Under the pieces are notes generated by a model that was not told the DNA's origin, did no database searches, and was given only the letters and a program-made list of their open reading frames with translations. Shown piece after piece: positions 19,807 through 31,444 of a stretch of 64,000 bases of DNA. The first letter of the stretch is position 1. Each line of letters starts with the position of its first letter. Position numbers and translations under genes: made by a program. The stretch is taken from positions 42,581 to 106,580 of the IMG/VR virus record IMGVR_UViG_3300012344_000014. The stretch is one strand, 5' to 3'. The stretch is from a virus. Taxonomy: Duplodnaviria > Heunggongvirae > Uroviricota > Caudoviricetes.

Positions 19807-20019
19807 ATGCATAAGCCGTTAGGTAGCAAAGAGGTTATCTCGATACTCGAAAAGTAGCAGTGGCGCAAGCTCAAAAACCGTGGTAAGGGAAGCCATACGG
19901 TTCTTGAGAACCCTGAGAACGGGCTCCACGTTACGGTACCCCGCAGCAAAGAACTCCCAGCGGGAACCTAGAAGAGTATCGGGCGGCAAACCGGTGTGAA
20001 TTTTGATGATCACCGGTGA
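19807..20019 (+). CDS. hicA: HicA-like mRNA interferase toxin with two in-frame TAG codons (19855-19857, 19969-19971)
   Basis: MHKPLGSKEVISILEK-TAG-QWRKLKNRGKGSHTVLENPENGLHVTVPRSKELPAGT-TAG-KSIGRQTGVNFDDHR matches the HicA consensus (..LEK.GW...R..GSH......P......TVP.H.K.L..GTLK.ILKQAG.). The second TAG falls at the conserved Leu of 'GTL'. Ends TGA. Confidence 0.6.
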
Positions 20020-20032
20020 GCGACCTCGCTTC

Positions 20033-20073
20033 AAAATGGACGGCCTTCTACTGGGCATGTCCATTTTTGTTTG
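20033..20073 (+). terminator. rho-independent terminator after the HicA-like gene
   Basis: aaaatggac...gtccatttttgtttg hairpin plus T-tract. Confidence 0.55.
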
Positions 20074-20102
20074 TAAACGGCAGACCGCAATGATGGGGTG
20101 GG

Positions 20103-20720
20103 TTAAATAATTTCGTCCATTGTTTTCACAATGATGTCGCAGACTCCGTGCTCAAGGCAAAAAACGGAATCCAGTTCCCAGTCATTGTTGCGCTTTTTAT
20201 TCAGCAGCTTAGCAGGAATGTTGGTCTTCTTGAGGATATGTTCCTTCATGGCTTTTAGGGAACTTTTGTAGCTGTCGGCCGCGTCGAACACCTTGGTGCT
20301 GTCGCCGGAAAGGGAGGCGCTGCCCTCGTGGATTACAACGCGAGCGCGGGGAAGCATGAAACGCTTATGACCGCTGAGGAAGATGATACCAGCCGCTGAA
20401 GCGCACACGCCCATGTTAACCGTATAAACCGGCGTCACAGAGGATTCGATTGTATCAATGAAAGACCACATCATATCGGCGTCGCCGCCGTAATTCATCA
20501 GATACAGCCAGATCGGTTTGCGCTCATTGACCGGCTTGCCCGCGTCTTCAATGTTCCAGCGGAGGATCAGCCGCTCATACTCGAGCATGTTGATATCGAC
20601 TTCGCCGTCGAGCCAGAGTTTGCGCTCTTTTTCCAGCTTGTAATAGGATACCAGTTCAGGATCTGGCAACTGATAATTGCCAACGTTATCAGAAAGAATA
20701 GGAAGTACAAGTCCGTCCAT
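20103..20720 (-). CDS. clpP: ClpP-family serine peptidase
   Basis: ClpP-like fold length with 'GVCASAAGIIFLSG' catalytic-Ser region. Confidence 0.75.
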   Translation of the reverse strand: MDGLVLPILSDNVGNYQLPDPELVSYYKLEKERKLWLDGEVDINMLEYERLILRWNIEDAGKPVNERKPIWLYLMNYGGDADMMWSFIDTIESSVTPVYTVNMGVCASAAGIIFLSGHKRFMLPRARVVIHEGSASLSGDSTKVFDAADSYKSSLKAMKEHILKKTNIPAKLLNKKRNNDWELDSVFCLEHGVCDIIVKTMDEII

Positions 20721-20731
20721 ATGTTCTCCTC

Positions 20732-29071: not shown

Positions 29072-29349
29072 CTGCGGGCATCGGCGAGCGTCACGTCATA
29101 AGCGACGTCGTCCGGGATCTCCAGCGAGAGAAGCATCTTGTAAAGAGCGGCGAAATAAGCGGCGCGCGTGCGGCCGGCGTTAATCGCCTGCTTCATCTCC
29201 TCGGGCAGGTTTTCCTTCGGTTTCGGGGATTCCTTCACTCCCTCCGGCTTTGCCGGTTTCTCCGTCTTCAGGGAAGAGTCTGTTTTCGGCTCCTCCTTCT
29301 CCGCAAGAAAGTTGAGCAGATCCCACAGTTCTTTCATTTCGTTTGCCAT
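29068..29349 (-). CDS. hypothetical protein
   Basis: Likely start MANEMKELW (RBS aaagga); ORF track 29068-29445. Confidence 0.4.
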   Translation of the reverse strand: MANEMKELWDLLNFLAEKEEPKTDSSLKTEKPAKPEGVKESPKPKENLPEEMKQAINAGRTRAAYFAALYKMLLSLEIPDDVAYDVTLADARR

Positions 29350-29691
29350 AATTTCGAATCCTTTCACCATATTTAATATCAATCCATGCGCGCAGGAACG
29401 TGCCTGCAACGCAGACCGTGACGGCCAGCACCCACGCGGCCACATAGGAAACCCAGTGCGTCAATATCCAGATGAGCGCGGTAAGTACCGCCGCCCCAAG
29501 AAAAACGCCAAGGAAATCAATCAACATCTACATTACATCACCACCTCGGAAGAGAATGATTATCATCGTCAGGGAAAAAATAGGCAAGCGCGATACCGGA
29601 AATAAGGAAGAGCGCCGCAGCCCATGGAGGCAGCCCTAATTCCGCAAACCGTCTATATACGACGCCTGCCATAAAACCAACTGTAAACATA

Positions 29692-30201
29692 TTACACCCC
29701 TGTGCTGCCAAATCCCCCGTTACGCACACCGGACGCAGTATCGTTCGCGGCCGTCAGATAAGGGAGGAAAATGCCCTGCATAAACTTCGCGCAGCCCGGC
29801 AGACGAACGGGCTCTTCGGCGGTGAGCTTGGCCTGAATATGCCCCTCATTAGACGAATAGTAATAATCGCTGTCGACGATCCCGGTGCTGTTGCGCAGGC
29901 GCAGGCCATATTTGAAACCGAGCCCGGATTTGGGAACGATCGCGAGGACTACGCCGGGCGGCATATGGCAGCGGATACCTGTCGGCAGAGTGAGCGGATA
30001 CTCGGGGAGGACTTCAATTTCATAGGGAAGGAAGAAATCATAGCCCGCCGAACCGGCCGTTGCGCGGCAGGGAAGCGGAATCGCCTCCCAGATCTTACGC
30101 GTTTCAGCCACGCCCAAAGGGGCGATTTGCCTTCCTTTTTCGAACGTCTCCCGGAACTCGTCAAAGGAAACCTTTTCAAAATAGATTTCGTCGGTATTCA
30201 T
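29692..30201 (-). CDS. dut: dUTP diphosphatase
   Basis: Motifs 'ATAGSAGYDF', 'IVDSDYY', 'RNGGFGSTG'. Confidence 0.85.
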   Translation of the reverse strand: MNTDEIYFEKVSFDEFRETFEKGRQIAPLGVAETRKIWEAIPLPCRATAGSAGYDFFLPYEIEVLPEYPLTLPTGIRCHMPPGVVLAIVPKSGLGFKYGLRLRNSTGIVDSDYYYSSNEGHIQAKLTAEEPVRLPGCAKFMQGIFLPYLTAANDTASGVRNGGFGSTGV

Positions 30202-30446
30202 CAGACATACCCCTCGTTTACAAATTCTTCATCCACGTTCGGATTGCGGATATACATGCCGCAGGCGCAATCGCCATGCTCGCGGAAGTCTTTACAGGGG
30301 CACTTCGTATCCTTCGTCTTTTCCCTCTTGCAGGGGCAGAAACCCGAGTTGGCCTTGATTCGTTTCCGAAGGTTCCAAAGAAATTCAGAGTCTGGATTCT
30401 TGATAAACCCATCAAGCATTCTTTTCCTCCCATGTGATATCATCAA
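30201..30446 (-). CDS. FTR/FDR-like catalytic-subunit-like small protein, copy 2
   Basis: 'GFCPCKREKTKDTKCPCKDFREHGDCACGMY'. Start probably at internal 'MLDGFIKNPD'. Confidence 0.5.
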   Translation of the reverse strand: MMISHGRKRMLDGFIKNPDSEFLWNLRKRIKANSGFCPCKREKTKDTKCPCKDFREHGDCACGMYIRNPNVDEEFVNEGYV

Positions 30447-31080
30447 AAATAACGGGAAACAGTTTCTGGAATTCGCAAAGCAACGGGCGCATGAGCGAGC
30501 GCATTTCCGGATAAGCGGCCGACGAGGTGCGCAGCTGAAAAATATGCCGCCATTCCCGCAGGTTTGCCTTCATGACGATGATGCAGGCGGTAGAATTGGG
30601 GAGCACCTTGCGCGCGTCTTCCGCCTTCATGCCGCACTCATACCTGAGATACCGGTAATAAGTTTCGGCATGCTCCATGGACGCATCCCAGCCGCGGGAA
30701 GCGCACCATGTTTTCGCATCCAGATCGGGGCCTTCGGCTGGAAGATAGATATCCGGCCGGATGAAGCTGATATCTCCGGTCTTATCATCTTCGACATAGC
30801 GCTGGCTCTGAACGCAGAAACTGGGGAGCCGGTGCCGTGTGATCTCGGCCAGGACATCGCGCCCGGTGACGAGCTCAACCATGGCGTCGCCAAACTCAAT
30901 AGGGGCTTCATGCCCCCGCTTTATAAGCCCGCCAAGAAACTTGCGCCAGCTATCGGCCGTGATTTTATCATGCGAGCGATAGCAATTACGGGCGGCGTAT
31001 TCGATAAGGCGCAGCGTTTCCAGTGCGCGCTCCGGCGTGGACGGCGAGAGAATCTTAAAAGACTGGTTAATTACCTTCAT
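30412..31080 (-). CDS. thyX: flavin-dependent thymidylate synthase
   Basis: ThyX motif 'RHRLPSFCVQSQRY'. RBS ggagga then ATG at 31080; the ORF track N-terminal extension is spurious. Confidence 0.85.
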   Translation of the reverse strand: MKVINQSFKILSPSTPERALETLRLIEYAARNCYRSHDKITADSWRKFLGGLIKRGHEAPIEFGDAMVELVTGRDVLAEITRHRLPSFCVQSQRYVEDDKTGDISFIRPDIYLPAEGPDLDAKTWCASRGWDASMEHAETYYRYLRYECGMKAEDARKVLPNSTACIIVMKANLREWRHIFQLRTSSAAYPEMRSLMRPLLCEFQKLFPVIFDDITWEEKNA

Positions 31081-31444
31081 CGAAGGTTGATTCCTCCTTT
31101 CCTTCTTCATTATTAATGAGGGAATCCGCCTCGACGCCGTCCGTGTTTTCAGGATCGGTTTCAGCGTATTCGCTATCCCGATCATAGAGGTTGCCGCGCA
31201 TATCGCCGTTGAGGCGCATGAGCAGCGTTTCAAACCGGAGAGAGGAGAGCATAACGGTGCCCTCGTTAAAGAGAATGACGGAGCGGATTTTGCGCCCGAC
31301 CGTCGCATCCAAGAGATGCTTACGGCCTTTGGCAGCTTTGACCTATTCTTTCGAAGTCATGGTGCGCGGGTTAAGAACGGCAATGACATGATTGGCGCAG
31401 ACGGCATGCTTCAGGCCAGCGTTGACAAAGCGCAGTTCTTCCAT
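31067..31444 (-). CDS. RemA/DUF370-like small regulatory protein with in-frame TAG (31343-31345)
   Basis: MEELRFVNAGLKHAVCANHVIAVLNPRTMTSKE-TAG-VKAAKGRKHLLDATVGRKIRSVILFNEGTVMLSSLRFETLL... aligns with B. subtilis RemA ([64 protein letters not shown]). TAG falls at RemA Met/Leu. Confidence 0.55.

Follow-up and report, generated by a model that had tools for sequence, protein, structure and literature searches.

TAG is a sense codon, probably read as leucine, in a metagenomic SPbeta-like phage and its relatives

The stretch of DNA analyzed here, referred to below as the window, comprises 64,000 nucleotides (positions 42,581 to 106,580) of the IMG/VR virus record IMGVR_UViG_3300012344_000014, and it raises the question of what the codon TAG means in a phage whose genes repeatedly contain it in frame. 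An earlier note on this DNA had suggested that TAG most likely specifies a leucine-like residue rather than glutamine. All of the TAG sites listed in that note are present in the sequence, and its suggestion is supported both by the statistics of alignment columns and by the suppressor tRNAs of related phages (the loci of which are cited below by L numbers): TAG is a sense codon, and in this phage it is probably read as leucine.

TAG is a sense codon and not a terminator in the window phage and in a broad clade of its relatives, because it is unused as a terminator, lies inside protein domains and is kept across assemblies and relatives. A gene map tolerant of TAG contains 89 genes and 19,573 codons; the called genes end in TGA (46) or TAA (43) and none ends in TAG, which occurs in frame 22 times, or about once per four genes. 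Only three genes have TAG as their first stop, each of them with a TAA or TGA one to four codons later, and the probability of finding three or fewer such genes would be 4e-4 if TAG ended 15% of genes. Pfam domains cross TAGs at full length in the two HicA toxins, the RemA-like protein, the RuvC-like resolvase and the phosphoadenosine phosphosulfate (PAPS) reductase, with scores above the curated cut-offs (Table 1). The TAG at 4617 is followed by 110 codons without ATG, GTG or TTG, and yet this region has a high coding score. The TAGs at 2714, 4617 and 8892 are retained in an independent ENA assembly (96.8% identical), those at 2714 and 4617 are also retained in a second Logan assembly, and the three independent assemblies retain all comparable TAGs; sequencing error was ruled out as their source by this retention. 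Further in-frame TAGs are conserved in and shared by the relatives L084 and L086, where they occur in tube, tail and other genes, and TAGs are conserved across lineages that are 69–90% identical, inside essential genes (tube, tail, terminase). Recoding is also found in relatives with 48–92% tape-measure or capsid identity. The density of TAG varies within the clade, from about 30–38 independent sites per 20 kb in L123 and L124 to 22 per 64 kb here.

The identity of the amino acid was addressed by a test of alignment columns. It drew on 14 sequence sets, namely the window, the stretches flanking it on both sides and 11 loci representing eight related lineages, and took in all in-frame TAGs that they contain in real genes. 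The residue scored was that of the best-scoring homologue without TAG at the column, at a local identity of at least 35% and with orthologous sites merged, and the substitution table was built from more than 32,000 residue pairs from the same alignments. Apparent TAG columns in antisense open reading frames (ORFs), which aligned with Q, Y, K and E, were excluded by strand and gene model. Over 97 independent columns, the nearest homologue without TAG has L in 67, M in 6, T and Q in 4 each, I in 3, V, F and A in 2 each, with seven singletons. Leucine is the best-fitting residue, with log-likelihood gaps of −106 for methionine, −165 for isoleucine and −259 for glutamine; real leucine codons, used as a control, give 77.6% L in the same procedure, and an earlier run with fewer loci gave the same ranking of residues. 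By lineage, L is found in 5/5 columns of the window lineage (gaps of −9.8 for methionine and −20 for glutamine), 29/38 columns of L123 and 21/30 columns of L124. Two of the five columns of the window lineage come from orthologues that are 88–93% identical around the site and have CTG at the column.

Several sites can be compared at the level of the codon. In a tail protein, L086/L087 have DRLEGQ[TAG]DILKNKLL where the window phage and L084 have DRLEGQ[CTG]DILKNKLL, in surroundings that are 92% identical. The nearest homologue of the tail-fibre-like gene at 4548–5759 (L038, 88–91% identical) reads NTIRTK[CTG]VDLGLA, and the column holds L 43 times, A 34 times, M twice and Q never across 79 IMG/VR homologues. 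The column of RuvC codon 59 has leucine (CTG) in L160, at 48% identity, and at the tube and capsid-neighbour columns the nearest homologue has L; at the capsid-neighbour column, I is found in a homologue that is more distant. The sites cited in the earlier note compare as follows. The TAG at 38722 in a small membrane protein faces a leucine (TTA) of the paralogue at 38176–38421 (VGL[TAG]GMSF versus VSLLGMY), which also has a leucine (CTG) at the 38644 column; the TAGs at 13879 and 15216 do lie, in the translations, in the core of a signal peptide and in the transmembrane segment of a holin-like protein, the weak homologues of the latter having F or M at the column; and the window's own Gly-rich paralogues do have glutamine (CAG) and leucine (CTG) at the 8892 column, where L038 and L052 have leucine. 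For HicA, the note had placed TAG after GT, at a leucine position, and this stands in part: both paralogues have TAG after GT, and the column (codon 55 of HicA-1) is hydrophobic in solved HicA structures (V, V, L and F in the PDB homologues), but it is not uniformly leucine. The RemA column, for which methionine or leucine had been proposed, is hydrophobic in Geobacillus RemA, which has I. An exhaustive search for RemA-like proteins gave 20 hits, the closest of which are truncated just past the TAG, suggesting that they are recoded too. No homologue covering the TAG column was found in the search made for the gene at 2630–3811, and no usable homologue was found for codon 23 of the NrdH-like gene, PDB included.

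The second line of evidence is provided by tRNAs. A tRNA with the anticodon CUA is found in eight related lineages and, in the six whose flanks were examined, it lies upstream of the terminase genes, in a region that was reached by walking through the relatives, first with a capsid fragment and then with the terminase; the other two tRNAs (L170 and L174) come from a loose pattern scan for Leu-type CUA tRNAs, which gave mostly noise and two true cases. The Rfam tRNA threshold is exceeded by all six of the CUA tRNAs scanned (all but L170 and L174). By inspection, all eight have A73, U8:A14, A15 and G18G19, and in all of them the D stem has 3 bp and position 13/22 is unpaired, giving a D arm of the Leu type. 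U48, giving the A15:U48 pair, is present in at least L093, L105, L107, L111 and L174, only L111 lacks A20a, and the D loop is of the AAUUGGCA type in six of the eight; the CUA tRNAs match the D-loop form of tRNA-Leu, AA(U)(U)GG(C)A. Their 1–72 pair is G1-C72, C1-G72 or G1.U72, the wobble pair being that of L093, L123, L124 and L174. The leucyl-tRNA synthetase (LeuRS) of E. coli needs A73, A15:U48, G18G19, A20a and contacts of the D loop with the T loop, and requires neither the anticodon nor the long arm (PMC9976931). The features required by LeuRS are, thus, conserved in the CUA tRNAs, and the arm and the anticodon, which are not required, are the features free to vary.

The genes around these tRNAs and their closest matches also point to tRNA-Leu. 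In L123 and L124, the CUA gene lies between tRNA-Leu(UAA) and tRNA-Leu(AAG), and in L174 it adjoins tRNA-Leu(UAA). The CUA tRNAs of L123 and L124 are orthologues (79% identical), with the long arm as the main difference between them. In an alignment (A2) that included six of the CUA tRNAs, the nearest non-CUA relative was a tRNA-Leu in every case, and blastn against GenBank phages gave, as its best long matches, genes annotated as tRNA-Leu that have the same D arm. At the same site, the L101/L102 lineage, in which no in-frame TAG was seen, has a tRNA cluster that includes an ordinary tRNA-Leu(CAA) of 89 nt. The clade's tRNA-Gln (L102) has G73 and an A1-U72-type end, and none of the CUA tRNAs resembles it. 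The suppressor tRNA that the earlier note had proposed to look for was, thus, found in eight related phages and not in the scanned part of this one. The A73 expected of a leucine suppressor is present in all eight, the long variable arm, also expected, is present in L107/L114 and L124, intermediate in L105, L123 and L170 and reduced to 5 nt in L093, L111 and L174, and the tRNA-Gln(CUA) cited as the contrary outcome is not among them.

Short tRNA-Leu genes (73–77 nt) without the long variable arm are also common to unrelated Streptomyces, Synechococcus and Mycobacterium phages and two IMG/VR contigs (L096 54–129, L097 59–131, L098 84–157, L099 12299–12375 and L100 946–3058), and their D arms, UAGCCCAA(N)GGCAGAGGC, are near-identical. 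Those of Streptomyces phage Genie2 (CAA), Synechococcus phage S-CREM1 and Mycobacterium phage Myrna share with the L093 tRNA this D arm, A73, the T arm and a 5-nt variable loop ending in U, but they have leucine anticodons (CAA, UAA, GAG) where L093 has CUA. A 13-gene tRNA cluster of a different IMG/VR phage (L214, 3731–3806 and its neighbours) includes both a tRNA with a UUA anticodon and a CUA tRNA whose D arm is Glu/Gln-like, and this phage may suppress both amber and ochre codons.

The favored explanation combines a sense TAG meaning leucine, a phage tRNA-Leu(CUA) and charging by the host LeuRS, and it is considered, as a whole, very likely. The phage genome would carry a derivative of tRNA-Leu with its anticodon changed to CUA, as observed in the eight relatives and as predicted here from synteny. 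The host LeuRS would charge this tRNA via A73 and the corner formed by the D and T loops (U8:A14, A15:U48, G18G19, A20a), ignoring the anticodon and the arm; because LeuRS ignores the variable arm, the arm of the CUA tRNAs could shrink from about 20 nt to 5 nt. The charged tRNA would then compete with release factor 1 at UAG, leading to read-through with leucine, the amino acid being that indicated by the alignments and the competition being presumed. The phage's own genes tolerate full suppression, because TAG is never needed as a terminator. More speculatively, TAG might also gate the translation of late genes and of small opposite-strand genes, including the two HicA toxin genes, according to the supply of suppressor tRNA. 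A broader proposal is advanced with moderate confidence: a clade of SPbeta-like phages of about 100–125 kb from gut-type metagenomes would read TAG as leucine, a code unlisted for any virus or bacterium, by means of a phage-borne tRNA-Leu(CUA), a class II tRNA seen across living lineages to lose its long arm and keep its identity, with TAG, near the start of late genes and within toxin genes, serving in sparsely recoded members such as this one as a switch that links translation to the suppressor tRNA.

A number of observations weigh against this explanation. The nearest homologue has a residue other than leucine at 31% of the TAG columns, versus 22% for real leucine codons. At HicA-1 codon 17, the PDB homologues have D or H; the PAPS-reductase column is variable across 12 homologues (S, E, I, M, F, P, R); and the distant homologues of RemA have Y4, I3, R2, V1 and Q1 at its column. 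These three columns say little singly. The examples given in the earlier note are weaker evidence than the systematic test of columns. The CUA tRNAs of L093 and L107 carry C33 instead of the near-universal U, and the leucine identity of the CUA tRNAs is a prediction made with rules worked out mostly in E. coli. Finally, no tRNA was found in the window or in the contig's 10 kb past its end (ARAGORN, and Rfam both with its gathering threshold and with E<=5), in the contig's 10 kb ahead of the window start (ARAGORN) or in the next 10 kb upstream, reached with the tape-measure protein and read in the relatives L084 (ARAGORN, Rfam) and L086 (ARAGORN), nor was one found within 10 kb upstream of the terminase in L112/L113. 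Candidates obtained in the window and its flanks with relaxed ARAGORN settings were rejected as noise inside genes. The scan covered about 85 kb of the 112-kb contig and 10 kb in relatives, corresponding to roughly the first 11 kb of contig positions 84,023–112,235, with about 17 kb upstream lying outside it, and it is within these 17 kb, about 8–10 kb beyond the start of L084, that synteny would place the CUA tRNA of the window phage.

The last of these observations leave room for decoding supplied by the host, in which a bacterium reads TAG as leucine or carries the suppressor, and the phage follows without a tRNA of its own. No tRNA was detected in the roughly 95 kb of the window lineage scanned, and the TAGs occur in early and late genes alike. 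The lack of a tRNA upstream of the L112/L113 terminase implies that the tRNA may lie elsewhere or be host-supplied, and it is because this closest IMG/VR relative shows none there that host supply is kept as an unlikely, but not negligible, alternative. Against it stand the CUA tRNAs that eight relatives encode, six of which have the gene upstream of the terminase, the region outside the scan in this phage, and the literature searched, in which there is no bacterial lineage with TAG as leucine. When bacterial genomes were scanned for a prophage or a host, the sole match was a 2.3-kb contig of a Clostridia metagenome-assembled genome, which also counts against this alternative and is a weak hint that the host belongs to the Clostridia.

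It is considerably less probable that TAG encodes another hydrophobic residue (methionine, isoleucine, valine or phenylalanine) or that decoding is ambiguous. M, I, V or F is indeed found at several columns (V, V, L and F in HicA, I in RemA, F or M in the holin-like protein), and a published isotype survey assigns 10% of phage suppressor tRNAs to isoleucine, but methionine and isoleucine fit the columns worse than leucine by 106 and 165 log-likelihood units, respectively, and the CUA tRNAs group with tRNA-Leu genes. The methionyl-, isoleucyl- and valyl-tRNA synthetases depend on the anticodon, which is CUA here, for recognition, whereas LeuRS does not. Glutamine (translation table 15), inserted by a suppressor derived from tRNA-Gln as in crAss-like, Lak and phAss-type gut phages, is the sole TAG reassignment reported for phages differing in code from their host, and it can claim the CAG of one Gly-rich paralogue at the 8892 column and Q at 4/97 TAG columns. 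It is nonetheless very improbable here, being behind leucine by 259 log-likelihood units over the 97 columns and by 20 units when the window lineage is taken alone; the orthologue pairs have CTG, not CAG, and the CUA tRNAs of the relatives combine, in all eight cases, A73 with a Leu-type D arm, unlike the tRNA-Gln of L102, with its G73 and A1-U72-type end. Just as improbable is the view that the TAGs are real stops, in split or decaying genes, with low-level leaky read-through or with insertion of pyrrolysine, since, although TAG is rare here (22 sites) and ARAGORN by default labels the CUA tRNAs as tRNA-Pyl, the TAGs are conserved inside essential genes over lineages 69–90% identical, TAG is avoided as a terminator, and the CUA tRNAs, with normal G18G19, TTCGA T-loops and A73, are unlike tRNA-Pyl, which has a tiny D loop without G18G19, a 3-nt variable loop and G73. 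No pyl genes or domains were found among the window proteins scanned.

The genes containing TAG and the CUA tRNAs of the relatives are listed in Table 1.

Table 1. Genes of the window with in-frame TAG codons, and CUA tRNAs of related phages (Pfam scores in bits are followed by the curated cut-off; bracketed TAG marks the recoded codon)
Feature	Coordinates	Strand	In-frame TAG, or tRNA length	Details
Tail-fibre-like gene	2630–3811	+	2714–2716 (codon 29)	TAG kept in L001, L003; ORF begins 10 nt past preceding stop
Tail-fibre-like gene	4548–5759	+	4617–4619 (codon 24)	NTIRTK[TAG]VDLGLA
Gly-rich tail protein gene	8790–9608	+	8892–8894 (codon 35)	QTYT[TAG]YKITGSGT
Secreted/membrane protein gene	13849–14250	+	13879–13881 (codon 11)	Hydrophobic core of signal peptide, MNKVFCILLT[TAG]VFMMTVCVG
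Holin-like gene	15174–15488	+	15216–15218 (codon 15)	In transmembrane segment
Serine recombinase gene	15905–17527	−	15920–15922 (first stop)	Four codons, then TGA: ...KLDQ[TAG]NVSL[TGA]
HicA-1 toxin	19807–20019	+	19855–19857 (codon 17), 19969–19971 (codon 55)	PAGT[TAG]KSIGRQTG at codon 55; Pfam HicA_toxin 1-58/58, 52.6 (27)
HicA-2 paralogue	21498–21734	+	21630, 21684, 21726	RIGT[TAG]VSIEKQSG at 21684; Pfam HicA_toxin 1-58/58, 33.2 (27)
Glutaredoxin/NrdH-like gene	26852–27064	−	26996–26998 (codon 23)	CxxC motif; weak Glrx-like Pfam match, 19.9 (26)
RuvC-like resolvase	27119–27628	−	27452–27454 (codon 59)	Pfam RuvC 7-146/148 across TAG, 25.6 (22.2)
RemA-like (DUF370) gene	31067–31444	−	31343–31345 (codon 34)	TSKE[TAG]VKAAKG; Pfam RemA-like 1-73/73, 61.9 (26)
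Small membrane protein	38176–38421	+	38272, 38407	Paralogue of 38548–38805
Small membrane protein	38548–38805	+	38644, 38722	VGL[TAG]GMSF at 38722
Small ORF	41964–42122	+	41985 (codon 8)	Gene status less certain
PAPS-reductase-family gene	42202–43062	−	42715–42717 (codon 116)	Pfam PAPS_reduct 3-173/175 across TAG, 55.1 (22.5)
CUA tRNA, L093	6918–6992		75 nt	Variable arm 5 nt
CUA tRNA, L105			80 nt	Variable arm intermediate
CUA tRNA, L107/L114	1848–1939 (L107)		92 nt	Long variable arm
CUA tRNA, L111			77 nt	Variable arm 5 nt
CUA tRNA, L123			79 nt	Variable arm intermediate
CUA tRNA, L124			90 nt	Long variable arm
CUA tRNA, L170			80 nt	Variable arm intermediate
CUA tRNA, L174			77 nt	Variable arm 5 nt

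The TAGs of the window are not distributed in the same way in all groups of genes. Late genes on the + strand have a lone TAG (2714, 4617, 8892, 13879 and 15216 in the window, and 5298 in a distal-tail gene of L002), always in codons 11–35 and at 6–14% of the ORF, the product of the relative positions being 6e-6 under a uniform model; the positions of all 22 TAGs taken together do not differ from uniform (Kolmogorov–Smirnov test, p=0.27). An early TAG in late genes may be a translational gate. Each of the small + strand genes inside the − strand early region (17589–17771, 19516–19680, 19807–20019, 21498–21734, 38176–38421, 38548–38805 and 41964–42122) holds one to three TAGs, and two of them are the HicA toxin genes, which have no obvious HicB partner; the − strand genes, over about 48 kb, have only five. 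In HicA-2, GGD replaces the GSH motif of HicA-1, and the TAG at 21726 lies one codon ahead of the last sense codon. The serine recombinase would be nearly the same protein under either code, a pattern that has been discussed for the integrases of other recoded phages.

The window is part of a phage contig of about 112 kb (Logan SRR1747039_750, 112,235 bp), in reverse orientation, and corresponds to the middle of the genome. The phage is temperate and known only from metagenomes, and it is a distant SPbeta-like phage, given the Pfam families YonB, YomX, YomU and YomG and the YonF-type terminase found in its relatives. At 1–15.8 kb, the window has a late + strand module with genes for the tail, tail fibres and lysis, followed by the serine recombinase gene and then by a long early module on the − strand. 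This early module encodes ClpP, PhoH, SHMT, NrdD, the glutaredoxin-like protein, RuvC, a dATP/dGTP diphosphohydrolase domain, dUTPase, ThyX and the RemA-like protein, together with an intein-containing DNA polymerase III alpha, a ligase, a PARP-like protein, PAPS reductase, a primase-helicase and a tyrosine recombinase. In the DNA polymerase III alpha (32578–37089, −; PHP, NTPase, finger and HHH domains), the intein splicing domain occupies residues 391–802. The protein with the dATP/dGTP diphosphohydrolase N-terminal domain (27621–27977, −) is clustered with SHMT, dUTPase, ThyX, NrdD and a metallophosphoesterase (22067–23308, 29692–30201, 30412–31080), which could hint at a modified nucleotide metabolism, and the protein at 38881–40080 (−) combines WGR and poly(ADP-ribose) polymerase catalytic domains.

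A megablast search of 50 kb of the window against GenBank phages gave no match, a scan of Joint Genome Institute (JGI) metagenomes for the window lineage gave nothing above 71% identity, and the terminases retrieved in a terminase search were all 76% or more identical to a lineage that is more distant, the window lineage's own terminase region not being recovered. The terminase of the clade is, at best, 25–31% identical to those of GenBank phages. The tape-measure proteins of L084 and L086 are 90% and 69% identical to that of the window phage, and the IMG/VR relative closest by capsid is L112/L113 (66%). In L084, two sub-threshold group I intron matches (4030–4692; E 3e-6 and 1e-5) lie between two pieces of a tail-tube gene, which is a single ORF of 294 aa in L090.

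The phage literature searched, targeted searches included, contains no reading of TAG as leucine in phages: the only reassignments reported there are those of TAG to glutamine and of TGA to tryptophan, plus glycine in code-25 hosts. One paper finds only TAG as glutamine and TGA as tryptophan in phages with a code differing from that of the host, a survey of 180 phage suppressor tRNAs predicts glutamine, tryptophan, isoleucine and tyrosine isotypes and no leucine, and TAG has been assigned to glutamine in a 136-kb group of Clostridia-associated phages. The table-15 gut phages (crAss-like, Lak, Garnet/Amethyst/Agate and phAss-1) resemble the phages described here in having large genomes with in-frame TAGs in structural, lysis and DNA-metabolism genes, TAG unused as a terminator, a CUA suppressor tRNA that is encoded by the phage and presumably receives its amino acid from a host synthetase, and an integrase that tolerates both codes. 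They differ in the amino acid, which is glutamine there and would be leucine here, and in the enzyme hijacked, the glutaminyl-tRNA synthetase (GlnRS) there and, as proposed, LeuRS, with a tRNA derived from tRNA-Leu, here; TAG use is also much sparser in the window lineage, and the terminase is at most 25–31% identical to those of GenBank phages.

The E. coli suppressor supP (Su6) is a tRNA-Leu with the anticodon CUA and, as LeuRS ignores the anticodon, it inserts leucine at amber codons. The proposed phage system resembles it in that an anticodon change in tRNA-Leu gives a leucine-inserting amber suppressor, but supP is a chromosomal class II tRNA mutated in the laboratory, whereas the phage tRNAs form a natural, conserved, phage-borne family, most members of which have a shortened or lost variable arm. 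Bacillus phage SPbeta and SPbeta-like phages share with the clade a genome of 110–135 kb, a serine recombinase, the Pfam families YonB (capsid), YomX, YomU (tube) and YomG and a YonF-type terminase; SPbeta itself is very distant (terminase about 26% identical) and uses the standard code. TAG is read as leucine in the Chlorophycean and Scenedesmus mitochondrial codes (NCBI tables 16 and 22), and UAG reassignments are described in ciliates (PMC6551751, PMC11687900). The codon assignment of the green-algal mitochondria is the same, but the genomes concerned are those of eukaryotic organelles or nuclei, which have translation systems of their own, in contrast to a bacterial virus presumably imposing its code on a standard-code host.

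The reading of TAG as leucine is new for phages within the literature searched, TAG as glutamine and TGA as tryptophan being already known. If it is correct, a new natural code would be added, and the clade that reads leucine would be mistranslated at every TAG by annotation pipelines, which assume table 15 for all phages with a recoded TAG. Phages would, moreover, be able to take over the host code via the anticodon-blind LeuRS, a route that is different from, and arguably easier than, those involving GlnRS and tryptophanyl-tRNA synthetase. The series of CUA tRNAs, with arms ranging from about 20 nt to 5 nt, would be a natural experiment on tRNA-Leu identity and a source of compact leucine-inserting amber suppressors for synthetic biology. 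Since TAG occurs in toxin genes and close to the start of late genes, it could be tested directly whether recoding serves as a translational timer.

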